A stretch of DNA of 64,000 nucleotides from Dehalococcoidales bacterium. GTDB lineage: Bacteria > Chloroflexota > Dehalococcoidia > Dehalococcoidales > UBA2162. The stretch spans positions 768-64,767 of the forward strand of contig DAOULV010000023.1 of the NCBI GenBank assembly GCA_034416335.1, in the 5' to 3' direction. Made by a program: the position numbers and the translations under genes. Under the pieces are notes generated by a model, which saw only the letters and a program-made list of their open reading frames with translations, was not told where the DNA came from and ran no database searches. Shown piece after piece: positions 2,039 to 16,208 of this stretch; within the stretch, counting starts at the first letter, position 1, and every line of letters starts with the position of its first letter.

Positions 2039-5000
2039 ATGAGTGATGAAGCTAAACAATTCAATAGCTACATTAGTTCTCTTCAAAAGGAATTAGCTAC
2101 AGGAAACACAACCGAGCATACTCATAGGCCCGCTTTTAAAACTTTAGTAGAGTCTCTTGATAAGGGAGTAACCGCAACAAACGAACCAGGCAGAATTAAA
2201 TGCGGCGCTCCCGATTTTGTTGTTACGAAAGGAGCCCTCACCATCGGTTATATCGAGGCTAAGGACATCGGTAAAAGTCTGGATGAAGCCGAGAAAACTG
2301 AGCAGTTAACCAGATACCGTGAATCTCTCAATAACCTAATTTTGACCAATTACCTGGAATTCAGATGGTACGTGGATGGTGACCTCCGGCTAGTCGCTAA
2401 TCTGGGAACTCCTGCGAAAGACGGAAAGATAAAACGCAGCAAGACAGGAGCCGAAGACGTCCATGAGCTAATAAGCGGATTTCTAGTAAACAAGGCAGAG
2501 GCTATCGGCACGCCGAAAGACCTAGCCATCCGGATGGCACACCTGGCACATATGATACGCAACCTGATTATCAATGCCTTTGAGAATGAGGAGGAGACCG
2601 GCGGTTTACATACTCAACTAGAGGCTTTCCGGGATAACTTAATTCCTGACCTATCTGTAGAGTATTTTGCGGATATGTATGCCCAGACCATAGCCTATGG
2701 GTTGTTCGCAGCCCGTTGTACATCCAACAATGGTACGTCTTTCACTCGACTTGATGCCGCTCAGAACCTACCGAAGACAAATCCTTTCCTGAGAAAGCTA
2801 TTTCAATACATAGCCGGCTACGACCTTGATGACCGCATTGCCTGGCTGGTGGATGACCTGGCACAGGTGCTGGCACAAGCGGATATGGAAGCCGTGCTCA
2901 AGGGCTTCGGCAAGCACACAGGTAAAGAAGACCCGGTAGTGCATTTCTACGAAACTTTCCTGAAAGAGTACGACCCTAAGATACGGGAAATGCGTGGCGT
3001 CTACTACACGCCGGAACCGGTAGTATCTTATATCGTGCGTTCCATCGATCATCTGTTGAAAACAAGGTTCAATAAACCGCAGGGGTTGGCTGATGAAAAG
3101 ACGCTGATTCTTGATCCCGCGGTGGGTACTGCCACATTCCTCTATACGGTGATTAACGAAATCTATCAGGCTAACACTGCAAAAGGACAGCAAGGTCTGT
3201 GGAATAATTACGTGGCGGAAAAACTCCTGCCGCGTATCTTCGGATTCGAACTGCTAATGGCACCTTATGCCGTAGCGCATCTGAAGCTGGGGCTTCTACT
3301 TCAAGATACAGGCTACGAGTTTAAGAGCGACCAGCGGCTTGGTGTTTACCTGACGAATACACTGGACGAAGCGATAAAACACTCCGAAGCACTCTTCGCA
3401 CAATGGATAAGCGAAGAAGCCAACGCTGCAGCCAGGATAAAGAAAGATGAACCTATTATGGTTGTGCTAGGTAATCCTCCCTATTCAAAACAGTCAGCAA
3501 ATAAAGGGAAATGGATTACAGAACTAATTAATGGTGTTATTGATAAAGATGGACATGAAATGAGTAAAGGATATAAAACTGTTGATGGTAAACCTATTAA
3601 AGAGAAGAATCCAAAATGGCTTCACGATGACTATGTGAAATTTATACGTTTTGGTCAATGGCGTATTGAACTTACAGGCCAAGGAATCCTCGGACTAATA
3701 ACCAATCATGGTTATCTAGATAACCCGACATTCCGTGGTATGCGGCAATCGCTAATAGAGACGTTTACTGATGTGTATATCCTGAACTTGCATGGTAATA
3801 CAAGGAAAAGAGAGGTTACTCCAGATGGCAGCAAGGATGAGAATGTTTTTGATATTCAACAAGGAGTAGCTATAACGTTATTCATTAAAGAAAGAGATGA
3901 AACTAAATCAGCAAAAGTTCATTATATGGATTTCTGGGGAATACGTGAAAAAAAGTACGCTGCTTTATATGAAGCTAGTATCGATACTCTCGAATGGAAG
4001 GAAATAGAACCGCACAGCCCTTATTATTTATTCTTGCCGACACATGAAACAGAGCTAGAGGAATATAACACTGGATGGAAACTTAATGAGATATTCCCTG
4101 CAAATAACGCGGGTTTTTATACATCGAGAGATAATTTAGTTATAGATTACGATAAAGAAGCACTACAAAATAGAATAATGAATTTTCTTGAAAATACTCT
4201 CAGTGATGATGAAATCCGAGAACGATATCAGGTAGTGGAAAAAGATGATTGGAAAATAAATACTACTCGTAAAATTATCCGCAAGGAAAAACATATTTCT
4301 AAGTTTTTTAAAAGGTGTCTTTACCGTCCTTTTGATACAAGGAATATATACTATCATAAAGCCCTGATACAAAGGCCACGATTTGAAATAATGAATCACA
4401 TGATTAGTGGTAATAACATTGGACTTATTTCTGCAAGAAGTAACAAAACATCCGAAATGACTCAGTTTTTTTGTTCATCTAATATAACTGAACTAAAGTG
4501 TGGTGAATATTCCATAGGATCTTACTTGTTCCCGCTTTACCTCTATCCAGTCGAAGGTGAGATGCAGTTTGATGGCGGCAAGCGACGTTCTAACCTTAAT
4601 CCAGAGTTTATAAAGGACGCGTCTGATAAGCTGAGACTAGAGTTTATCGAGGACGGAAGAGGAGACCTGGAGGAAACATTCGGACCGGAGGATATATTCA
4701 ACTATGCCTATGCCGTCTTCCACTCACCAACATACCGGACACGCTACGCCGAATTCCTCAAGATAGACTTCCCTCGCCTACCGCTAACCTCGGATAAGCA
4801 GCTTTTCAAGGCATTAGCAGAGAAAGGCGCCGAACTAGTGTCACTCCATCTCATGGAGTCACCCGCGTTGAATAATCTTATTACCAGTTATCCTGTAGCC
4901 GGTCCCAACGAAATGAAAAAGGTAACCTATGATGACAATAGCCAGCGTGTCTACATCAACAAAACGCAGTACTTTAAGGGTGTTCCGCCTGAAGTCTGGG

Positions 5001-5173
5001 CATTTCATGTAGGCGGGTACCAGGTATGCCAGAAATGGCTAAAAGACCGCAAAGGCAGAACACTCACCTACGATGAATTAACTCATTACCAGAAAATAGT
5101 CGTAGCGCTCAACGAAACTATTCGGTTGATGGCAGAGATAGACAAGTTGATACTGGAGTGGCCGTTAATGTAG
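2039..5173 (+). CDS. type IIG/ISP-like N6-adenine DNA methyltransferase with an N-terminal PD-(D/E)xK-like motif (no helicase)
   Basis: ORF track 1044 aa. Motif I is LDPAVGTATF and motif IV is NPPY (nt 3473-3484). The N-terminus has APD (2210-2215)...IEAK (2255-2263). The C-terminal YAYAVFHSPTYRTRYAEFLKIDFPRLP resembles the type ISP/IIG C-terminal domain. Confidence 0.8.
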   Translation: MSDEAKQFNSYISSLQKELATGNTTEHTHRPAFKTLVESLDKGVTATNEPGRIKCGAPDFVVTKGALTIGYIEAKDIGKSLDEAEKTEQLTRYRESLNNLILTNYLEFRWYVDGDLRLVANLGTPAKDGKIKRSKTGAEDVHELISGFLVNKAEAIGTPKDLAIRMAHLAHMIRNLIINAFENEEETGGLHTQLEAFRDNLIPDLSVEYFADMYAQTIAYGLFAARCTSNNGTSFTRLDAAQNLPKTNPFLRKLFQYIAGYDLDDRIAWLVDDLAQVLAQADMEAVLKGFGKHTGKEDPVVHFYETFLKEYDPKIREMRGVYYTPEPVVSYIVRSIDHLLKTRFNKPQGLADEKTLILDPAVGTATFLYTVINEIYQANTAKGQQGLWNNYVAEKLLPRIFGFELLMAPYAVAHLKLGLLLQDTGYEFKSDQRLGVYLTNTLDEAIKHSEALFAQWISEEANAAARIKKDEPIMVVLGNPPYSKQSANKGKWITELINGVIDKDGHEMSKGYKTVDGKPIKEKNPKWLHDDYVKFIRFGQWRIELTGQGILGLITNHGYLDNPTFRGMRQSLIETFTDVYILNLHGNTRKREVTPDGSKDENVFDIQQGVAITLFIKERDETKSAKVHYMDFWGIREKKYAALYEASIDTLEWKEIEPHSPYYLFLPTHETELEEYNTGWKLNEIFPANNAGFYTSRDNLVIDYDKEALQNRIMNFLENTLSDDEIRERYQVVEKDDWKINTTRKIIRKEKHISKFFKRCLYRPFDTRNIYYHKALIQRPRFEIMNHMISGNNIGLISARSNKTSEMTQFFCSSNITELKCGEYSIGSYLFPLYLYPVEGEMQFDGGKRRSNLNPEFIKDASDKLRLEFIEDGRGDLEETFGPEDIFNYAYAVFHSPTYRTRYAEFLKIDFPRLPLTSDKQLFKALAEKGAELVSLHLMESPALNNLITSYPVAGPNEMKKVTYDDNSQRVYINKTQYFKGVPPEVWAFHVGGYQVCQKWLKDRKGRTLTYDELTHYQKIVVALNETIRLMAEIDKLILEWPLM

Positions 5174-5322
5174 GTATAAATAGGAAATCAATGATTTTTA
5201 TATTACGAAGTTACCTATCAAAGCGGATTTCGGATAATGTCTTTGTTTTAGTATAAAACCTGTTAATTCTCCAAGCTATAGCTTGATTACTAGTTAAGGT
5301 CTAGCATAGTAATCTAAAAACC

Positions 5323-5351
5323 TTGACGTTTGTTGAACATAACATTATAAT
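5323..5351 (+). promoter_or_regulatory. sigma70-like promoter of the six-gene operon
   Basis: TTGACG (5323-5328), 17-nt spacer, TATAAT (5346-5351), in the 213-nt gap after the MTase. Confidence 0.55.
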
Positions 5352-5386
5352 CGAATACTTCACATATGTGGGGGGAGGTAAATAAT

Positions 5387-6286
5387 ATGCCAAACTACAT
5401 TAGAGATTTGTTTCTATATGTACCTGAGCCAGTATTAAGAAATTTATGCAAAGAGCATGGAATAAAGACTTCGGGATTAAAAAAACTGCAACTTGCCGAG
5501 CAGTTAGTAAAAGGGATTGAAACCCAAGAGTATGAGTCTATACTAGATCAACATCGTTATGCCGGAAGGGGAAGCGTGGTTTGGTTTAGACCTACTCGAA
5601 ATGGAGATACTTTCACAATATCCGATACAGAATTGCGAAACCATATACGTAACTATTGTAATGGTGATCCTTTTGAGAACGACCTTACACCAGAGCTTGA
5701 CCGGCATCCGAAAATAATAAGCTCTAGATTCCTCCATAATGATAAAATAATTATTTTAATGGCTCATATTGAGTTGTGGCCTCGAATTGTTGGCTTTGAA
5801 GTACAGGAAACGGAAGAGACGGTATTTTCTAGATTAATCATTCGACAAGGGTCTTTGTTTTTCGAGGCACGCGCTAGTCAATATAAAGCCGTTCTTATGG
5901 CAGAAGATATTGCGGCAGCACTGGATTGTACAGATATAGGTCAGATAACTCTCGGAGATGATGGTATGAATACTCTAATAGATCGACTGGGTGCATCGAC
6001 TATTGCAGCAAAACATAAACATAATTCAGGCGATTATGATACCACCGAAGTAGTTGTTAATCCTCAAATCGGAGATCTGAGAGACTCTTCACAATATTCC
6101 AATGAACTAAGCGGTCTAGAAGGACGTAGGAAACGAGTTTCTTTTGATTGCACTTTCGGTTCTGAGGTGGTAGCCGTAAGAGCGGAGCTTTATCCAAGAA
6201 CTGGGAATATAGTTTTTCGGTCATATGTAGATGAGAGGGTGTTAGATTATGTATTTGAAACAGTTAGACAAATTAAGGGATTATAA
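5387..6286 (+). CDS. hypothetical protein with an N-terminal SAP-like motif
   Basis: GGAGG 5374-5378 plus ATG 5387 is preferred over ATG 5366. LRNLCKEHGIKTSGLKKLQLAEQLV resembles a SAP DNA-binding motif. The rest is unassigned. Confidence 0.5.
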   Translation: MPNYIRDLFLYVPEPVLRNLCKEHGIKTSGLKKLQLAEQLVKGIETQEYESILDQHRYAGRGSVVWFRPTRNGDTFTISDTELRNHIRNYCNGDPFENDLTPELDRHPKIISSRFLHNDKIIILMAHIELWPRIVGFEVQETEETVFSRLIIRQGSLFFEARASQYKAVLMAEDIAAALDCTDIGQITLGDDGMNTLIDRLGASTIAAKHKHNSGDYDTTEVVVNPQIGDLRDSSQYSNELSGLEGRRKRVSFDCTFGSEVVAVRAELYPRTGNIVFRSYVDERVLDYVFETVRQIKGL

Positions 6287-6638
6287 CATTGCACAAGAGA
6301 CCATAGCTAAGCTAGATGAATATCTAAATAGCATCGCTGAAGAAGGAACAAAACGTTTCAGCCCCAATCACATGGCCGAACGGACTGGGCTTGACATTCA
6401 AATTTCTCAAACGATACTTCTCCGAACAGCTCAAATAGGAACAATTCAAACTTACTATGAAATAGAATGTCCTGAAGGTGATAGTGATTTTTTTGTTACG
6501 AGAATAGAAGATGTTGATTGGAATACTGAATGTGTATGTAGAGTGTGTGGCACAGAATATATACCAAATCCTTCTAATATTTGGGTGACGTTTAGTATTT
6601 TAGACCCTCCTTCCCCAAAAGCATTATGCCGCCTGTAA
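6249..6638 (+). CDS. hypothetical wHTH-like / Zn-ribbon-like protein
   Basis: ORF track 129 aa with a GAGGGTG SD before ATG 6249 and a 38-nt overlap with the upstream gene. It has an HTH-like SPNHMAERTGLDIQISQTILLRTAQ and a Cys cluster ECPEG...CVCRVCG. Confidence 0.45.
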   Translation: MYLKQLDKLRDYNIAQETIAKLDEYLNSIAEEGTKRFSPNHMAERTGLDIQISQTILLRTAQIGTIQTYYEIECPEGDSDFFVTRIEDVDWNTECVCRVCGTEYIPNPSNIWVTFSILDPPSPKALCRL

Positions 6639-7240
6639 GTGGTACTCACAAATCAGGTGGCAGCCTACAAGAACTAACTAAAAGACCAGAGTGGATAGAT
6701 TTCATCCCATCTCAGTTGGTGGCACTTGATAGAGATAAATACTCAGAATTACTAGGACGAGTTGAAGAATCACTCCTTTCAGGAACCAATAAAGAAAAAG
6801 GAGATAGTCTAGAAGAACTCGCTGATTTTCTATTAAGCTCAATCAAAGCATTTATTGTCGGGCAAAAAACCAACACATCAACCGGAGAGCTGGATAGATT
6901 CTTGAAAATAAGTAAGATTCCCGGGACATTTTTATGCGACTGGTCATTGTATATTCCCGTAGAATGTAAAAATTGGAATGATCCTGTGGGTGGGGATATT
7001 ATTGACCATCTTTATGCCAAAGCAAGGAATATGGATGCAAATCGAGGAATTTTATTTTCTCGTGAAGGTGTTACAGGCAATATGAGTCATGATGGTTGGA
7101 GACAAATCGTAAACTTATTTCAAAATTCCCGTTATATAACCATTGTTGTGGACATTGATGACCTAAGAAGTATCAACGCTGGAACTTGTCCATTGCATAT
7201 AATAGAGCAATGCCAGGAAAAAGTAATATTAAGCGCATGA
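6626..7240 (+). CDS. Mrr-like restriction endonuclease-domain protein
   Basis: ORF track 204 aa. GDSLEELADFLL...ELDRFL...YIPVECKNW...GILFSREGVT follows the Mrr_cat PD-(D/E)xK layout (D...ExK). It overlaps the upstream gene by 13 nt. Confidence 0.6.
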   Translation: MPPVSGTHKSGGSLQELTKRPEWIDFIPSQLVALDRDKYSELLGRVEESLLSGTNKEKGDSLEELADFLLSSIKAFIVGQKTNTSTGELDRFLKISKIPGTFLCDWSLYIPVECKNWNDPVGGDIIDHLYAKARNMDANRGILFSREGVTGNMSHDGWRQIVNLFQNSRYITIVVDIDDLRSINAGTCPLHIIEQCQEKVILSA

Positions 7241-7283
7241 ATAAGTACTATTTCAAACCTTTCAATTCGGTAATGAGTTATAG

Positions 7284-8192
7284 ATGATGAACGAACTTAA
7301 CAGCTCACATTTAAATATAATCGACACCATTAAGCTCAGGGGAAGAGAATTTACAGATGATGAGTTGAGCACTATTCGTGAAAGTGTGATAAATAACTTT
7401 GACAAAGGTCGTACTTATATATCAAGAGATATTTGTAATACCCTCAATTGGAAACAACCAAATGGTTGGCTAAAAGATAGAGCATGCCGTGACGTGTTAC
7501 TTGAATTAGAAAAAAGAGAAATAATCAAACTTCCACCTCCTTTGGTAGTTAAGAACAACAAAAAATCTAACAAAGGCAATAGTATAAGTTATTTGAAAAA
7601 TTTTGATCTGAATACACCTATATCCGAATTCCCAAATTCTATTGAACTAGAATTTGCAAAAGGTAATATTCAAGAGAAAGTCTGGAATGAACTGGTCAAT
7701 CAATATCATTATTTGGGACATAGCACTACTGTTGGTAGGTGCATTAAGTATCTGATTAGATCTAACGACAGGTTACTAGGGGCACTCTCATTTTCATCTC
7801 CGGCATGGGAACTGGAGACTAGGAATAATATCCTTAACTCAATAGGTATTGAAAATCCAAGAGATTACACAATAAATAATTCTAGATTTCTCATTTTACC
7901 TATAGTGCAAGTAAATAATCTTGCATCACATGTGTTAGCTATAGCAGCAAAAAAGATTGTTAACGATTGGAAGGACTATTATTCCATAATTCCTCTGATT
8001 GCTGAAACTTTCGTTCAACCATCTCGATTCGATGGCACCTGCTATAAGGCAGCCAACTGGATAGAAATTGGTACAACAAAAGGTTATGCTAAAAGAGGAA
8101 GATTTTATCGAAACAGTCAGGAACCCAAGAAGATATTTTTGTATGGTTTAGATAAAAGAATACGAACAAAGTTGCTACAATTAGAGAAATAG
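7284..8192 (+). CDS. DUF4338-domain protein (DruA-like)
   Basis: ORF track 302 aa. QYHYLGHSTTVGRCIKYLIRSNDRLLGALSFSSPAW and ETFVQPSRFDGTCYKAANWIEIGTTKGY match my memory of the DUF4338 signature. Confidence 0.65.
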   Translation: MMNELNSSHLNIIDTIKLRGREFTDDELSTIRESVINNFDKGRTYISRDICNTLNWKQPNGWLKDRACRDVLLELEKREIIKLPPPLVVKNNKKSNKGNSISYLKNFDLNTPISEFPNSIELEFAKGNIQEKVWNELVNQYHYLGHSTTVGRCIKYLIRSNDRLLGALSFSSPAWELETRNNILNSIGIENPRDYTINNSRFLILPIVQVNNLASHVLAIAAKKIVNDWKDYYSIIPLIAETFVQPSRFDGTCYKAANWIEIGTTKGYAKRGRFYRNSQEPKKIFLYGLDKRIRTKLLQLEK

Positions 8193-8200
8193 GCATTATA

Positions 8201-9256
8201 ATGAATGCACGAGATACCTTAAAGAATGCGCGAGAATTTATTCGTAAACAAGGCGGGCAAATTGCACCGCTCCCTATAACTGAAGAGGAATTGGATCCTT
8301 CAGCTCAAGATGATCAGTCACTTGAAACTTTTTCCTTAGAACCTACAAATTGCCAGAATGTTGAGTATTCATATCCAGATGACTGTGGAAACAGCGAATT
8401 CTCCTTTTTTGAAGATGGTAAACAGAGAACTCTACATATAGGATTTATAGAAACCGAATATGGAGATCATACTGCTATAATTCCGGTACATTTTGTAGTT
8501 GTTGCCGCAGTAATCTTACAACGGCAAGAGCGTGAATTAAGCCTTTGGGATCAGCCAGTGATCCGAAGTGGAATATTGGTCGAAAAGTCACTTGTTCCGA
8601 ATACACATGCTCTTAATGAATTTGAAAATCTCGGATTAGAAATAATCGATACAGAAGGTCTTGGAGGAGACTACTACGTATTGAGGAATAAAGCTTTACA
8701 AAAAGCAAAATCTATGAGATTAGAAGTCGAGGATGAATTAATACGTCGATGGCGTACAAGCGATGATGCCCAAAACGGCTTTTTAATAGTAGATGGGACG
8801 TTGATGAATTTTCGCGACGAGGAGAATGTTAGGCATTGTATTGGTGTCAGTAAATCATTCGGTACTAGATATTTCACCACAAGTGAGCACAATCGTATAT
8901 TACAAATGCAAGAATTTCAAAGATCTTGGACATTTCGTTTCCACCATCCTGGAGATGCACTAAATTTGGGAGTACGTGACCGAGTAAGTTGGTACCTAAG
9001 ACTTAGAACTAAAACTAACGCCGATCCTGAGTTTGGTCTTATCCGAGTAGAGATAAGTCACTCTTATCATAACCAGGCAACCGATTATGCTAATCGATTC
9101 TCTAAATCATTAATATCAGAAAGGCTACCTACTTCCTATCCGGATAGTCGGTGGGATAAACTTTTATATCCTATTCAAGAGTGTGAGAGTTATTTGTCAA
9201 GTGTAATACCTTCAATTCAAACCATCGCTTCCAGTATGAAAGGAGCGCTGTCATGA
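8201..9256 (+). CDS. NurA-like nuclease
   Basis: ORF track 351 aa. NurA-type motifs are FEDGKQR, RLEVEDE, FLIVDGTL and GVSKSF. It sits directly upstream of, and overlaps, a HerA-like ATPase. Confidence 0.55.
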   Translation: MNARDTLKNAREFIRKQGGQIAPLPITEEELDPSAQDDQSLETFSLEPTNCQNVEYSYPDDCGNSEFSFFEDGKQRTLHIGFIETEYGDHTAIIPVHFVVVAAVILQRQERELSLWDQPVIRSGILVEKSLVPNTHALNEFENLGLEIIDTEGLGGDYYVLRNKALQKAKSMRLEVEDELIRRWRTSDDAQNGFLIVDGTLMNFRDEENVRHCIGVSKSFGTRYFTTSEHNRILQMQEFQRSWTFRFHHPGDALNLGVRDRVSWYLRLRTKTNADPEFGLIRVEISHSYHNQATDYANRFSKSLISERLPTSYPDSRWDKLLYPIQECESYLSSVIPSIQTIASSMKGALS

Positions 9257-11052
9257 CATATCAGTCGGTACCACAGGAAGAATCGCCTGAAATGCAAAAT
9301 GAAGAGTTTAGCCTAAGTAATTTTCTGAATATTAGCTACGGAGTCATTGGTAGAACTGCATCGACGAGATTTGAACCCAACACTTCCGGTAAATTCCACT
9401 TTTGGTTATCGAAACTTGCGCCTAATCTTCCAGCTGATGATGATCATGAAGTTCCTACTCCTAACGAAACTCAAGAAGTTGGTAGAGACCGGGAAGAAGT
9501 GGCGCCAATAGAAATAGGAAATATCGTGGCTGCATATTCAGATGATGAGGTAGATATTACATTTGGTACAGTAACAGAAATGAGATCATATAGCGATGTG
9601 GAGAGTTTCATTTCTGATTATTTAAGTCATGATTTTGGCGATGCCACTATTCAAGTTCCGACTGATATTACTGAAGTAATTGTTGTCACTTGTGCTGTAA
9701 TGCGTAATATATCACTTAAGACCAAGCCCGTGGGGAGATCTCGAGTATATTTCCCGAGTACATTAGGGATTCAATTTTCCTACGGAATCGTTGATGAAAA
9801 TGGTGAAATAACCTTTAGAGGTGCGCCTATACCCTTTGGAGTATTTGAAAACGGTGATGGCACTATTGCTCCAATCAGTGTAGACGAAAATTTCTTACTC
9901 GGACCGGAAGGCGCTCATCTTAATGTTTCTGGTATTTCAGGCTTAGCATCAAAAACTTCAGCAATTGAATTTACGATCAACTCTCTTCTCACTCACACTC
10001 GTAAGAGACTGGCTGTAGTGATGTTCAATGTTAAAAGTCAAGATTTACTTTACATCGATCAGGTGAATCCGAGACTCGCGGAGGAAGAATGGTCACAATG
10101 GGCATATGACATTTTAGGTGTACCTCAAGAACCATTTGCTAATGCAAGTTTCTATGCACCTGCAGATCCTAGAAATGCACCAGATGGGACACAGAGTTCC
10201 AGAAGTCTTGAAGTACAGCCCTTCGAATGGAATTTACCTATGATTTATCAGCAAATTCCAACTCTATTTGACCAGATGGATTGGGATGATAGGATGGAAG
10301 GAGTCTGGTTTACAATACAGGGCGATATAGAAAGTGGCCAAATTTTATCTTACGGGCAAATGGTTAATTCGGTTCAAAATCTTATCAATACAGCAACAAA
10401 TAATCAGCGACAATGGGTAAGAGGCAACCATATTTCTACTTGGCAAAAAATGTTATCACACTTAAGGCGATTTCCACAATCTTATCAAGGATTGATAACA
10501 CCTGCTGGTACGGGTAGGGACATACCATGGAATGAGTTACAGGAAAATAGTGTTTGGATCATCGACATTGAAATGCTCGCTGATCGAGGTCAAAGGCTGG
10601 TATTTGGTCGTTCAGTGTATGCTATTAGCGAGATGTTAGAATCTGATGATAGCAACCTAGACGCAGTTGTAGTATTTGTTGACGAATTAAACAAATTTGC
10701 TCCTTCAGGAAATGTTAGAACTCCACTGAAATCTAGGTTAATTGATATCACAGCAAGAGGACGAAGCATAGGAATGGTTCTTTTCGGTGCGGAACAATTT
10801 GTTTCATCAGTAGACAGAGAAATCGTCGAAAATAGTTCAACGTATCTATTCGGACACACTGAAACAAATGAACTACGTAGCCCTACATTTAGTGCGTTGA
10901 GTGATGAAGTAAAAACAAAATTGACGATGCTTCCTCAAGGACAACTGTTAATTAAATTTGCAAAATTCCCACAGCCAATATTCTTGAAATTCCCATTTCC
11001 CGCATGTTGTCCTGGTGATCAATATAGTTCAGAAGACGTGGGAGATCAGTAG
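9253..11052 (+). CDS. HerA/FtsK-superfamily (DUF87-like) ATPase
   Basis: ORF track 599 aa with an ATGA overlap with the NurA-like gene. It has a HAS-barrel-like N-terminus, a deviant Walker A SGISGLASKTS (nt 9931-9960), a Walker B VVVFVDE (nt 10665-10686) and ARGRSIGMVLFGAEQ. Confidence 0.65.
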   Translation: MTYQSVPQEESPEMQNEEFSLSNFLNISYGVIGRTASTRFEPNTSGKFHFWLSKLAPNLPADDDHEVPTPNETQEVGRDREEVAPIEIGNIVAAYSDDEVDITFGTVTEMRSYSDVESFISDYLSHDFGDATIQVPTDITEVIVVTCAVMRNISLKTKPVGRSRVYFPSTLGIQFSYGIVDENGEITFRGAPIPFGVFENGDGTIAPISVDENFLLGPEGAHLNVSGISGLASKTSAIEFTINSLLTHTRKRLAVVMFNVKSQDLLYIDQVNPRLAEEEWSQWAYDILGVPQEPFANASFYAPADPRNAPDGTQSSRSLEVQPFEWNLPMIYQQIPTLFDQMDWDDRMEGVWFTIQGDIESGQILSYGQMVNSVQNLINTATNNQRQWVRGNHISTWQKMLSHLRRFPQSYQGLITPAGTGRDIPWNELQENSVWIIDIEMLADRGQRLVFGRSVYAISEMLESDDSNLDAVVVFVDELNKFAPSGNVRTPLKSRLIDITARGRSIGMVLFGAEQFVSSVDREIVENSSTYLFGHTETNELRSPTFSALSDEVKTKLTMLPQGQLLIKFAKFPQPIFLKFPFPACCPGDQYSSEDVGDQ

Positions 11053-11147
11053 AGCACAATATTGTCTCTAGCATTGTCATTAATCGCAGTGTTATTTACT
11101 GCTAATGCAGTATATTGTACTGCAAAAATATACAAGTTGATACACGA

Positions 11148-11972
11148 TTAAGGGAGGACCTTCTTCAGATACTCCTGCCAGTATCCTTCATCATCACCTA
11201 CTATCTCATGAAGCCAGCAATACATCATCAATATCTCGAATTCTTGTTTCCTGCCTTTTGTGAAAGCTTTTTTGGGCATTTTCGTATACAGTGAGTTGAT
11301 ATTAAACAGGTTCGTACCTTTCTTGAAATCGTATTCATACTTCATCCAAGGATCTTGTGTCGTTAATTTATGAGTGGATGGCCAGAGGTCCTTATTGTCC
11401 CAAAAATAATTCACCCAATTCTCTGCGAACGTCATAACGTTCACTCGATATTTCATCCATGTCTTATTAATCCAGTCATTGATGTCTTCAGAGAAAAAAG
11501 GTGACTCTGATCTCCAGGCTTGCTGACTCTGTATTCGATGATATTCTTTTATAAACAGGAACAGCATTTCGGTCTGGTCTCTGAGGAAAGGATACTTCTT
11601 AATCAACTTAGAATAACAGTCGTATGATAAGCTTCTGAATTCTTGGTCTGTGTTGAAGAGAAAGAAGAACACATTTTGATCTAGAATGAAACCAATAGCT
11701 CTATTAACATAGCTCCCATGGTCAGTGTTTATCCCAACAAGCCAATCCTGGATTTCTGGATCGTATTCCCGTAGCTGTTTTCGGTACTTTTCTATCTTCT
11801 CATTTTGTAATACGGTTTTATTCTCTGCAACCGTAATATTCAGGTAGTTATTAAAATATTCGAAAACATAGTTAACACATATCCGTAGATTTTCCGTTCG
11901 AGTATCGGCATCAAATTCATCAATCTTATCTTCTTTCTTACGGCGAATAATATAGTCTTCAAGTCTTAACAT
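11148..11972 (-). CDS. hypothetical Trp/Tyr-rich protein
   Basis: ORF track 274 aa with an AAGGAGA SD before ATG 11972. No family was recognised. Confidence 0.5.
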   Translation of the reverse strand: MLRLEDYIIRRKKEDKIDEFDADTRTENLRICVNYVFEYFNNYLNITVAENKTVLQNEKIEKYRKQLREYDPEIQDWLVGINTDHGSYVNRAIGFILDQNVFFFLFNTDQEFRSLSYDCYSKLIKKYPFLRDQTEMLFLFIKEYHRIQSQQAWRSESPFFSEDINDWINKTWMKYRVNVMTFAENWVNYFWDNKDLWPSTHKLTTQDPWMKYEYDFKKGTNLFNINSLYTKMPKKAFTKGRKQEFEILMMYCWLHEIVGDDEGYWQEYLKKVLP

Positions 11973-12989: not shown

Positions 12990-13637
12990 CTATACCCGGT
13001 ACCGAATATATGGGTAATTTTCAAGATAGAAACGTGCTAAGTGCGTGAGTGCATGGCTGCGTGATGGTTCTTCTTTTATTCTAGATATCAAATCCAGGGC
13101 GAGGTTTATTTCTCTGGCTTCAGATTCTTCTACCATAAAAGTAAAGCTGACGGGAATAGTGAACTTACCTCCTTCAGAAGTGTTTGATATGATTTCGTCT
13201 GCCTCAAGGTGTGATAGGCGTTTTAATTCCTCAATCTGTTTATTGTTATCTGGAAGAAGTGCCGTCAGTTCATCAGCTTCGTAGGATTTAAAAAGGTTTT
13301 CTAAAAGTATTGCTCTTCGCTCGGGGACTTCTTTACCAGACAGTCGATTAAGGGTTGCCAGATAAAGTCTTGTCTGAGAATCGTCAAGTTTCCAGACCAG
13401 GCAGTTTATTGTTCGATAACTAAGAGCGCGAAGTACACGTAAACGATTATGCCCATTGATAATCTGAAACTTACCTCTTTCGCTAGGATGCAGACGAACC
13501 GTCAACGGTTCATACCTGCCACTCCGCTCTATATGACGCCTTAGTTTACGGGCTGTTTCCGCATTCATAAAGTTACTGTTTTCTGGATGTTCGACCAATA
13601 ATTCAATAGGGATTTCCTGTATTTTTATATTATCCAT
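12990..13637 (-). CDS. ParB/Srx N-terminal-domain protein (ParB-like nuclease domain)
   Basis: ORF track 12990..13724. ATG 13637 is preferred because it avoids a 77-nt overlap. IPIELLVEHPENSN...YEPLTVR...FQIINGHNRLRVLRAL is the ParB-N pattern. Confidence 0.65.
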   Translation of the reverse strand: MDNIKIQEIPIELLVEHPENSNFMNAETARKLRRHIERSGRYEPLTVRLHPSERGKFQIINGHNRLRVLRALSYRTINCLVWKLDDSQTRLYLATLNRLSGKEVPERRAILLENLFKSYEADELTALLPDNNKQIEELKRLSHLEADEIISNTSEGGKFTIPVSFTFMVEESEAREINLALDLISRIKEEPSRSHALTHLARFYLENYPYIRYRV

Positions 13638-13647
13638 TTTATCTATT

Positions 13648-14595
13648 CTATTCGAATAAGTTTCCCTGAGAAGGAATCTCAGTGGAATTCGACCAGTGTC
13701 CGACAATATTACAGCTTCCGCCAATATCCGGGTTCATGCAGCCACAAACTGAGATCTCTATACCGTATATACCAGCGATTCTCTTTACATTCTCGTATAT
13801 TTCATTCCGCGTAGAGGGAGGTAGAGGGACGATAGAAGAATGAGGAGAAAGAACAGGCATACGCCCGGATAAATAGTGACTCATTATACGTTTGGTTATC
13901 GAACTGTCGTTTATATATTTTTGCAGGTTTCGAGCAATCATCGGACGTAGAAATAGTGTGCTTATTGCCGCTTTTTTTATGCCCGTATTAGCTAAAGTCT
14001 CTAATAGACTATTCATGGATACCTCAGTATCGGTAATTCCTGGTATTATGGGTATTATCCTAGCCTCAACTTGTATACCTGCATTGACCAGAGCTTCTAT
14101 TTGCTTGAGACGTACACTTACAGAAGCAGCATTGGGCTCAAAGATGCGTCTTACCGAATCATCTGCGGTGATTGTGCCTATCTGGACTCTGACGATATGA
14201 GCATGTTCTCGCAAAAGACCTAGAGTTTTCTCCGGTATTTTCCCCTTGGTTAAAAAAGCCACCCCAATATCTTTGGCAAGCAATAGATTTAAAACACGGT
14301 GACTTAGTTCCAGCACGTTCTCTAGAGGTTGAAAAAGGTCACTCGAGGGGCTGAAATACACTGCCTGCGGTAATTTCCTTTTTAATGAGAGTTCTTTTTC
14401 CAATTTTTCCAGGATGTTAACGTATAAAGAAACTTTGTTGTCGCCTGGATATACGGAGTATCCGCGAGCGTAGCAATAGAGACAACTATGAGCACATCCC
14501 AGGGTTAAATTAACTGTCGGAATATTAGACAGGCAGGAGAGACTGGATGGAGTGAGAATTGCAGATTTTCTTTCTGTATATTTCAACACTACCAT
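13648..14595 (-). CDS. radical SAM protein, COG1533 / SplB-like ('DNA repair photolyase') family
   Basis: ORF track 315 aa. The CxxxCxxC cluster GCAHSCLYCYARG lies near the N-terminus. Size and layout are typical of COG1533. Confidence 0.75.
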   Translation of the reverse strand: MVVLKYTERKSAILTPSSLSCLSNIPTVNLTLGCAHSCLYCYARGYSVYPGDNKVSLYVNILEKLEKELSLKRKLPQAVYFSPSSDLFQPLENVLELSHRVLNLLLAKDIGVAFLTKGKIPEKTLGLLREHAHIVRVQIGTITADDSVRRIFEPNAASVSVRLKQIEALVNAGIQVEARIIPIIPGITDTEVSMNSLLETLANTGIKKAAISTLFLRPMIARNLQKYINDSSITKRIMSHYLSGRMPVLSPHSSIVPLPPSTRNEIYENVKRIAGIYGIEISVCGCMNPDIGGSCNIVGHWSNSTEIPSQGNLFE

Positions 14596-16208
14596 ATGTA
14601 TTCACCTTTAAGATTCAGGTAATGCTCTTTAGACTTGTGTGAAAATATGTAAGCAAAGTTACCTCTAAGTTTTAAGGTTTTGGTCATATCACAGACCATA
14701 ATGTCATTAAGCGAAAAAGCAGTCATGTGATCGATGAGTTCACGAGAAGTCAGATCCATATCGATGATAATCGTGTAATCACAAACAGTCATGAGGCAAT
14801 CAATAATACTTCTCCCGTCTGTAGTTACCAGACATTCGGGGTTGAATTTCCGTGCGGGAAGTACGAAATCCTGGTTCTTTATATCTCCACATACTTTAGA
14901 ATCTAACAATGTCATGCTCTTATAGAACCGGGTAAGTGATACAAGAGAGTATATTTTTTCGTTCGTTCTATACTTACTTGAATTCGAAATTGCCAGATTG
15001 TCTACTCCCCCTCCGGTTGGAGACAGACTGTTTTCAGGAAGGACCGATTCGATGTTAGATGTAGGAAATAAATCTTTGAGCATCTCTGTTAACTTTTCAG
15101 AATCTAAATTTACAAAGAAGAAATTACCGCAGGTATCTAGCACTTTCGAGATCAAAGCAATTCTTATCCCGTCGGTTTTAGTTGACGGAAGTACCCGACT
15201 TAACCAATTCCTGTAGTCATCGCCAGTATATTCCAGACTACCAATTTACGCTTGCATATTATCTTGAAGAAAGAATCTGGCAGGATTAGGAGGTTCCAGA
15301 TCAACAGATCGCAGTCGGAATCTCGGTGTGAATCCGAATTGTCCTCCCAATTTCTGGATTTTACGGCAAAGTGTGGCAACAAGGCTGCTGCTTCCAGCTC
15401 CTATATCTAAAAACTCTATAGTAATATCATCATTGAAATATTTGTGCTCGGATTGGATTACAGGTTTAACAATACCCTGAAATATTTGTCTTCCTCGTTC
15501 GGCGGTCCATGGGTCGGTTGCATATTTAATACTATCTACAAATTTATTTAGTAGTTGGAAACTTTTCCCCCGCTTTTCTATAGACACTGCAGGATAGAAG
15601 AAGAGTGACATCGGAGAATCCTTAGATAGTGAATACTGCCTGTAATGAAAAAATAATTCCGGTTTCTTATCTCCATTAACTGTAATCACAGGAAGAAAAC
15701 GGGAGTCGTCTAAAGAGTTAGGAAACTTCAGTTTAGCTAAGAGATAGCAAGGATTCCGCGTTGTACAGATTCCGGCAGCGAGTATCTCAGCGTCGGAATC
15801 TGTTAAGATTATTCCGAAGCATTCGAAACCTAAAACCGCCCTAAGTGCGCTTAACCATGATTGAGTAGCGCAGGTTTCCGAATAATTTGATAGAAAAGTG
15901 TTGAGTAAAGAAAAGTAATGGTAACAGAAATCTTTCATTAATGAGGAACTAAATCCACAGTGAATATAATTTCTCCAAACAAAATGAAGCTTGTAAAGAT
16001 TATCCTCTAATTCCTTGTGTTTAAGTTCATACAATGGCTGCCAGTATGCATTCCAATCCTTTGTTTCTAAAATAAACCTTCCACTATTAAAAACCTTAAC
16101 ACTGGTAAGGATAGTATCTTTCTCCAGGACTGACAAAAGTAGTCCCCTATTACGGACTCTTATAAGATTATTTAGCGGTATCGCTGCTGTTTTCATTTCC
16201 GATTCCAA
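14589..16208 (-). pseudogene. about 539-codon class I SAM-methyltransferase-like gene interrupted by a single in-frame TAA
   Basis: ORFs 15246..16208 and 14589..15155 share one frame and are separated only by TAA 15246-15248, with 30 sense codons bridging them. Motif I IEFLDIGAGSS and RSVDLEP lie just before the stop. The 3' end overlaps the rSAM start (ATGGTAG). Confidence 0.55.

Follow-up and report, generated by a model that had tools for sequence, protein, structure and literature searches.

Two separately recurring gene cassettes, one of them a candidate NurA-HerA-based defence system, in a six-gene locus of a Dehalococcoidales bacterium

Introduction

When six genes lie closely packed on one strand of a bacterial genomic island, do they form one system, or several that have come to lie side by side? 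The question is raised by positions 5,323 to 11,052 of a 64,000-nt stretch of DNA (the whole of which is called the window here) from a Dehalococcoidales bacterium (contig DAOULV010000023.1 of assembly GCA_034416335.1). A preliminary description had read the six genes found there, g1 to g6, as a single operon and a candidate undescribed defence system. We report here that the first three genes (cassette A) and the last three (cassette B) each recur without the other three, and that cassette B, in which a HerA-type ATPase gene follows that of a predicted NurA-fold nuclease and a DUF4338 gene, is a candidate for a widespread, undescribed system of its own.

Results

Each half of the six-gene set recurs alone

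The six + strand open reading frames (ORFs), with the coordinates, overlaps and gaps claimed for them, were confirmed exactly:

g1, 5387-6286 (ORF open from 5366), + strand: cassette A, protein of 299 amino acids (aa)
g2, 6249-6638, + strand: cassette A, protein of 129 aa
g3, 6626-7240, + strand: cassette A, 204-aa Mrr-type PD-(D/E)xK nuclease
g4, 7284-8192, + strand: cassette B, first gene, DUF4338 protein
g5, 8201-9256, + strand: cassette B, predicted NurA-fold nuclease
g6, 9253-11052, + strand: cassette B, bacterial-type HerA hexameric translocase ATPase

Genes g1 and g2 overlap by 38 nt and g2 and g3 by 13 nt; 43 nt separate g3 from g4 and 8 nt separate g4 from g5, and g5 and g6 overlap by 4 nt. 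Translation of g1 probably begins at 5387 rather than 5366, because GGAGG precedes it and because all homologues and the NCBI gene call give a protein of 299 aa.

A metagenome scan with the g5 family returned 38 loci, and some 40 g4-g5-g6 loci were gathered overall (surveyed loci carry L numbers, and the counts of gene order that follow are of non-redundant loci). In 31 of the 33 loci whose upstream sequence spans 900 nt or more, g4 precedes g5; the exceptions are L102, which has an IS3-type transposase gene on that side, and L124. Of the 28 loci with enough downstream DNA, 27 have g6 after g5. The identities of g4, g5 and g6 homologues to the window proteins co-vary across loci (r 0.90-0.97), and the trio keeps a strict gene order across distant phyla (Acidobacteriota, Chloroflexota as represented by Kallotenue, and many metagenomes). 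In an Acidobacteriota metagenome-assembled genome (MAG) and in Kallotenue papyrolyticum, the g4 homologue is followed by genes for ~352-aa and ~570-aa proteins (59-61% identical to g5 and 65-66% identical to g6 of the window), without g1-g3. The closest relative, a Joint Genome Institute (JGI) metagenome contig, carries the same trio (g5 86% and g6 87% identical), preceded by DEDDh exonuclease and DUF2779 nuclease genes. None of g1, g2, g3 and the type IIG methyltransferase gene that lies upstream of them in the window was found in the ~40 g4-g5-g6 loci, and cassette B has elsewhere its own upstream intergenic region of 200-390 nt.

Cassette A, for its part, was found without cassette B in three loci, L128 (a Chloroflexota MAG), L129 and L130 (JGI contigs), two of which are near-identical. 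In these loci g1-g2-g3 keep the 38-nt overlap and convergent genes come next, g4-g6 being absent from all three. Among the loci surveyed, the six-gene set was found elsewhere only in L001, an identical copy of this contig, and a genome-collection scan with g4 returned only a remoter clade of DUF4338 proteins associated with insertion sequences (IS), with no cassette B loci. Because g4-g6 and g1-g3 each recur alone, the six-gene operon is best described as two independently mobile cassettes, and the 43-nt gap is the seam between them. The proposal of a single six-gene system was thus not borne out, and its fallback, two sub-modules of three genes each, was: an undescribed defence system is plausible for a three-gene cassette (plus a rarer second one) and not for the six genes together. 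We lean towards cassettes A and B being separate evolutionary and functional units within one defence island.

The last two genes of cassette B resemble bacterial NurA and HerA

The HerA label given earlier to g6 was well founded. The protein matches HerA of Deinococcus radiodurans (drHerA; PDB 7f6d_B) at 3e-34, its Walker A (GISGLASKTS) and Walker B (VDELNKF) align with GISGVATKTS and LDELNKY of drHerA, and it keeps the Walker A K/T, the Walker B DE and the residue aligned with drHerA D220 (residue roles are from PMC9960219). The NurA label of g5 is upheld by predicted fold, since PDB sequence and profile searches gave nothing; Pfam, PADLOC and NCBIfam, profile searches included, likewise yielded no match. 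In Foldseek searches, the AlphaFold2 model of g5 (predicted local distance difference test [pLDDT] 84, predicted template modelling score [pTM] 0.82) matched D. radiodurans NurA (7f6d_G; E 8e-13, TM 0.6) and Thermotoga maritima NurA (1zup; 1e-11), with no further significant match. The g5 family comprises 201 clusters, all of ~352 aa, in which D72 and D198 are invariant. On the strength of the model, g5 is a predicted NurA-fold nuclease encoded beside HerA.

Cassette B shares with the D. radiodurans NurA-HerA complex (PDB 7F6D/7WRW) an unusual Walker A, GISGxAxKTS, and the Walker B DELNK; the g5 model superposes on both D. radiodurans NurA and Thermotoga TM1739; and, as in the D. radiodurans and Thermotoga pairs, the NurA gene lies directly before the HerA gene, the stop codon of one overlapping the start codon of the other. 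It differs from them in that the sequence of g5 shows no detectable similarity to those of known NurA proteins, in that a DUF4338 gene precedes the pair in 31 of the 33 sampled related loci, and in that cassette B is mobile and lies in variable regions. Homology and the 4-nt gene overlap suggest that g5 and g6 would assemble into an ATP-dependent nuclease, a NurA dimer on a HerA hexamer.

L124 (9971-12872) contains a remote NurA-HerA pair that has no DUF4338 gene. Its proteins are 27% and 40% identical to those of the window, and it lies between a ribosomal protein L25 gene, ribD and ABC permease genes. This pair is probably a repair-type ancestor or relative of cassette B in housekeeping form and, as it lacks DUF4338 and sits among housekeeping genes, cassette B is to be seen as a distinct mobile offshoot.

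The DUF4338 protein has a predicted Mom-like acyltransferase fold

The assignment of g4 to DUF4338 held without difficulty (Pfam DruA 1.5e-28, 100 bits against a cut-off of 27). Matches to Mom families were also found, in Pfam (PF25680) at 3e-4 and 20.9 bits, under the cut-off of 27.1, and among PHROGs (Mom-like) at 2e-7; phage Mom-like proteins of BFVD match g4 as well. In the AlphaFold2 model of g4 (55 homologues, pLDDT 88), a small N-terminal domain made of a beta-hairpin and three helices, reminiscent of a helix-turn-helix (HTH), precedes a C-terminal alpha/beta domain whose best fold match in the PDB is Mom of phage Mu (8bv8, E 1.6e-6), GNAT acetyltransferases following close behind. Residues A214/S215, in the NLAS motif of g4, are invariant. 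DUF4338 has been classified as a GNAT domain by the Aravind group (PMC10853773), and Mom modifies adenine in DNA using Gly-tRNA (bioRxiv 10.1101/2023.03.24.534169). The resemblance of g4 to Mu Mom, a DNA adenine carbamoylmethyl transferase dependent on Gly-tRNA, lies in the GNAT core; g4 departs from it by its additional N-terminal HTH-like domain, by being cellular rather than phage-borne, and by a Pfam Mom score under the cut-off. Literature searches on DUF4338/DruA returned no functional study of DruA.

Separately from cassette B, DUF4338 genes were observed on transposable elements. In L066 (8266-10907; Acidobacteriota MAG CBDFLV01) lies a 2,642-bp element of the IS66 family with perfect 19-bp terminal inverted repeats GTAAATATTCGGTAAACCC, in which an IS66 DDE transposase gene is accompanied by a DUF4338 passenger, the stop of the former and the start of the latter overlapping by 4 nt. 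One genome contains no fewer than 25 near-identical copies of this IS66-type element, which was also seen in L054, L058, L061 and L063-L084. Multi-copy repeats of 2.7-3.1 kb with DUF4338 genes 34-47% identical to g4 were further found in Desulfatiglandales (L027/L031, with a DUF772-type transposase gene), Desulfobacterales (L038/L040/L041/L043), NaphS2 (L018/L036) and on the Thiodictyon plasmid pTs485 (L132), where the DUF4338 gene lies amid IS91 and IS4 elements and an integrase gene that splits a DUF2235 gene. NurA-HerA never accompanies these IS-borne paralogues. DUF4338 does not appear to have been described before as a passenger of transposons.

Cassette B lies in variable regions and is often decayed

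The surroundings of cassette B differ from locus to locus. It is adjoined by a type I restriction-modification (RM) system and GmrSD in L002, and lies near XisH/XisI in L003, an integrase gene in L004, PemK and PDDEXK_5 in L127, and ArdC, ParA and a large helicase in L126, a region resembling an integrative and conjugative element (ICE). When 117 ORFs flanking about 15 of the loci were scanned with PADLOC, matches were obtained to type I, II and III methyltransferases, a HamB helicase, DEDDh and PDC candidates. In L002 (6702-11523), NurA is cut off after its first 64 codons behind a g4 homologue (65% identical), and genes for an 844-aa Ser/Thr-kinase-ORC/Cdc6-like ATPase and a 360-aa protein come next; the effector seems to have been exchanged here behind a retained DUF4338 gene, beside the type I RM system and GmrSD. 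The HerA gene is split in both L107 and L127, and an IS3 insertion lies upstream in L102. The truncation of NurA, the splits of HerA and the IS3 insertion are forms of decay that accessory genes typically show.

Most cassette B loci are chromosomal, and searches of phage, plasmid and IMG/VR collections with g5 returned no cassette B, the only match being a distant NurA in Marinitoga camini virus 1. The patchy spread across phyla at 55-87% identity, the variable-region contexts and the frequent decay favour a role against invaders over one in core repair, and the mobile and defence contexts, together with the decay, fit a mobile anti-invader system.

Further genes were noted beside some cassette B loci. 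In one subclade a conserved fourth gene lies on the same strand just downstream of HerA (L095 5449-6045, L104 9631-10362, L123 8781-9419, and L110 6586-7650, which equals L111 12851-13915); the encoded proteins are 49-73% identical to one another, have no Pfam or PADLOC match, and have no equivalent in the window. Genes for a DEDDh (RNase_T/ExoX-like) exonuclease and a DUF2779 (Cas4-like PD-ExK) protein recur near the closest relatives of cassette B (L085 713-3003, L086 93-2383, L002 6000-6587 and 13033-14511), and may constitute another accessory nuclease module.

Cassette A resembles a rare Mrr-type restriction module

The Mrr-like nuclease claimed for g3 stood on the evidence of its relatives. 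The family counts 677 representatives (E <= 0.001), in most of which the g3-type domain is C-terminal and follows N-terminal domains of various kinds (RelA_SpoT, receiver, PIN, DUF5939). Pfam Mrr_cat matches these relatives in the aligned region, down to 7e-11, and g3 itself at E 0.086 only, and D90 and E113-x-K115 of g3 are invariant, forming a D...ExK core. PHROG matches of g3 were to families of unknown function, and PDB sequence and profile searches with g3, as with g1, matched nothing. Compared to Mrr-family type IV restriction enzymes, g3 has the Mrr_cat-type D...ExK core and differs in being a stand-alone 204-aa protein encoded with g1 and g2.

The labels attached earlier to g1 and g2 fared less well. 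The N-terminal SAP-like motif of g1 reached E 0.007, which is below the cut-off, and the winged-HTH/Zn-ribbon assignment of g2 was left unconfirmed, just three Cys being invariant in that protein. Homologue alignment revealed a conserved block in g1, AAKHKHxSGDxDTTEVVV; its family comprises only 5 clusters among 5.8 billion proteins, all of 299-315 aa, and searches of phage, plasmid and IMG/VR collections with g1 were negative. The invariant motifs of g2 are ECPEGDSDF and CRxC, and a weak match to the N-terminus of DUF5939 was found. As g2 and g3 are naturally fused in the metagenomic protein P0247 (332 aa), the small Cys-motif protein and the Mrr-type nuclease are predicted to act together. 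From its gene content, cassette A looks like a rare Mrr-type restriction module made of the g3 nuclease with g2 and g1.

In the window the two cassettes probably share one promoter

Two non-coding features frame the six genes:

5323-5351, + strand: sigma-70-like promoter TTGACG-17 nt-TATAAT (11/12 match), upstream of cassette A
11050-11123, no strand assigned: intergenic region, folding into hairpins, that separates g6 from the convergent - strand gene at 11148-11972

The promoter is present where the preliminary description had placed it and was the top-scoring site across 5100-11400 (11/12). Promoter-like sites in this interval numbered 18, against 21 +/- 4.3 by chance, and so are in no excess; the 5323 site is probably the sole strong promoter serving all six genes in the window. 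In agreement with the earlier claims, a pattern scan found no + strand terminator-like site within the six-gene region, and hairpins are present 3' of the g6 stop. The 100 nt past this stop fold at -24.3 kcal/mol with a modest z of -1.8, and an A-run, not a U-run, follows on the + strand; the hairpins may serve as terminator for one or both directions. The scans are compatible with a single operon (shared promoter, one strand, no terminator-like site inside). Cassettes A and B are probably co-transcribed from the 5323 promoter in this genome; no separate promoter is evident in the 43-nt gap between g3 and g4, and cassette B probably relies here on read-through from the cassette A promoter.

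The genes next to the two cassettes are the following:

1418-1753: RHH-like antitoxin gene (RHH, ribbon-helix-helix), in the group directly upstream
1757-2026: ParE toxin gene, in the group directly upstream
2039-5173: complete type IIG/ISP-like RM enzyme gene (PADLOC full-length match, E = 0)
11148-11972, - strand: orphan gene encoding 274 aa, convergent with g6

The type IIG-like methyltransferase and toxin-antitoxin pair reported upstream were thus recovered as a complete type IIG RM enzyme and an RHH/ParE pair, both of which are independent of both cassettes. Searches of Pfam, PADLOC, NCBIfam and PHROGs with the 274-aa protein gave no match. The AT-rich setting was also evident (GC 0.34-0.42 over ~0.6-16.4 kb versus 0.46-0.52 beyond). 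A tRNA-fragment attachment site, also proposed, went unsupported, ARAGORN and Rfam returning no RNA gene anywhere in the window, and a megablast of E. coli genomes matched nothing. Further along the low-GC island, at 12990-16208 on the - strand, four co-oriented genes encode a ParB_N-domain protein, a radical-SAM (SPL-like) protein and two proteins without matches; this set may be another conflict-type module.

Neither cassette corresponds to a named defence system in the libraries searched

The libraries searched were PADLOC 2.0 (2023), NCBIfam 20.0 (June 2026), Pfam and PHROGs. No significant match to g1-g5 was found in PADLOC 2.0 or NCBIfam, and the PADLOC matches of g6 are weak (mad8 3e-7; HerA 0.0018), so that the earlier statement that the gene set matches no named system holds for these two collections. 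In the literature we found no description of DUF4338/DruA with NurA or HerA, of NurA-HerA as a defence system, or of either cassette.

The individual exclusions made in the preliminary description were likewise sustained. Druantia type I was rejected, as DruB, DruC, DruD and the DruE (DUF1998) helicase are absent by Pfam and PADLOC from the eight proteins of 2039-11972 and from related loci, and g4 matches none of the PADLOC models, Druantia ones included, at E <= 0.01. What cassette B shares with it is that g4 belongs to Pfam DruA/DUF4338 and that NCBI names g4 homologues 'DruA', a name that is probably an over-annotation for cassette B homologues. The BREX and DISARM components PglZ/BrxC and DrmA/DrmB/DrmC went unmatched by PADLOC and Pfam in 2039-11972. 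SIR2-HerA and DUF4297-HerA (Gao_Her) were ruled out, neither a SIR2 nor a DUF4297 effector being found beside HerA by Pfam or PADLOC. MADS (mad1-mad8) was rejected too: the matches are limited to mad8 (3e-7) on the C-terminus of g6 and mad2 (1e-8) on the type IIG enzyme, NCBIfam MADS2 scored 19.5 bits against a cut-off of 720, other MADS families were unmatched, and a search of the MADS literature returned unrelated papers only.

Cassette B nonetheless resembles SIR2-HerA and DUF4297-HerA in combining a HerA-family hexameric ATPase with an adjacent effector enzyme in defence-island contexts; it is set apart by its predicted NurA-fold effector and by the DUF4338 gene that makes up a third component in 31/33 loci. 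Cassette B is thus a widespread, undescribed, NurA-HerA-based candidate of the HerA-motor-plus-effector type, in which a repair-type pair is joined to a Druantia-type domain.

Discussion

The low-GC island of ~16 kb would, in our interpretation, hold independent modules side by side: a ParE toxin-antitoxin pair, a type IIG RM enzyme, cassette A and cassette B. Cassette B would be a horizontally mobile three-gene system in which g6 acts as a hexameric, ATP-driven translocase of double-stranded DNA, and, on the model of the solved D. radiodurans structure, a g5 dimer seated on it cuts, from free ends, the DNA that passes through the ring. Owing to its putative DNA-binding domain, its Mom-like acyltransferase domain and its near-constant presence as third partner, g4 is the likely discriminating component; it might place an acyl-type mark on host DNA, which would then be spared, or else sense or license the nuclease. 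The likely target would be linear invading DNA of phages or plasmids. In cassette A, the g3 nuclease would work with the small Cys-motif protein g2 and the 299-aa protein g1. A more specific form of this proposal, in which cassette B confers RM-like immunity, DUF4338 writing a Mom-type acyl or aminoacyl hypermodification instead of a methyl group and NurA-HerA processively destroying unmarked DNA, is put forward as a speculation that we rate as rather unlikely.

Several observations weigh against a defensive reading of two separate cassettes. The flank survey was small (~15 loci) and had no background control, which makes the association with defence genes suggestive, and the cassette B loci L003 and L125 show no obvious defence neighbours. 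With the 43-nt spacing and no separate promoter evident, cassettes A and B may cooperate in this window. The structural match of g4 to Mom barely beats those to ordinary GNATs (1.6e-6 versus 7e-6), the Pfam Mom score lies below its cut-off, and hhalign of the g4 profile against the single Mu Mom sequence gave an insignificant E of 0.084. The remoter DUF4338 paralogues are carried on IS elements, and the domain may serve the mobile element instead of the host. Bacterial NurA-HerA is, moreover, described as a DNA-end-resection and repair machine (PMC9960219). Gene order, recurrence, motifs, folds and genomic settings are what the analysis shows, and complex formation, modification of DNA by g4 and the defence role are what we infer.

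This last point leads to the rival account that survives best, namely that cassette B is a DNA-repair or recombination module in which NurA-HerA resects broken ends and the DUF4338 acyltransferase regulates the pair or marks chromatin proteins. The match of g5 and g6 to the D. radiodurans HerA-NurA end-resection complex (PMC9960219) and the loci without defence neighbours speak for it. We nevertheless consider it unlikely, because cassette B is patchy across phyla despite identities of 55-87%, is adjoined by RM systems, toxin-antitoxin pairs, an integrase and ICE genes, and is often pseudogenised, and because the L124 pair, the one that does occupy a housekeeping context, has no DUF4338 gene and identities of only 27% and 40%.

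Cassette B might alternatively serve mobile elements, the Mom-like enzyme shielding element DNA from restriction while NurA-HerA processes transfer DNA or excludes competitors. Mu Mom is indeed an anti-restriction DNA modifier (bioRxiv 10.1101/2023.03.24.534169), DUF4338 paralogues ride IS66-type and other transposons in at least 25 copies in one genome, and one cassette B locus (L126) lies in an ICE-like region. Set against this, cassette B was not found in the phage, plasmid and IMG/VR collections, its loci are mostly chromosomal, and the paralogues carried by IS elements reach only 34-47% identity and never accompany NurA-HerA, all of which renders this explanation quite improbable. Least probable of all is that the six genes form one integrated defence system, with sensing and a first nuclease coming from g1-g3, and modification together with a processive nuclease from g4-g6: the single strong promoter, the tight spacing, the lack of an internal terminator-like site and the 43-nt seam without a clear promoter would suit it, but the six-gene set was found nowhere else save in the identical contig copy L001, and each half recurs alone, cassette B with its own 200-390-nt upstream region.

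Returning to cassettes A and B as separate units, the locus illustrates that tight operon-like packing in defence islands can unite unrelated systems. The Mom-like fold of g4 leads to a testable prediction, that g4 modifies DNA, and the compact three-gene setting of cassette B would, if it is a defence system, be one in which to work out the function of DUF4338/DruA. Should the RM-like form of the proposal be true, it would give the DruA/DUF4338 domain of Druantia its first function and explain the presence of the same domain on transposons. A defensive function of cassette B, if real, would also add NurA to the effectors known to act with HerA-family motors in immunity, and would tie anti-phage defence to a machine that serves DNA repair in archaea and Deinococcus.

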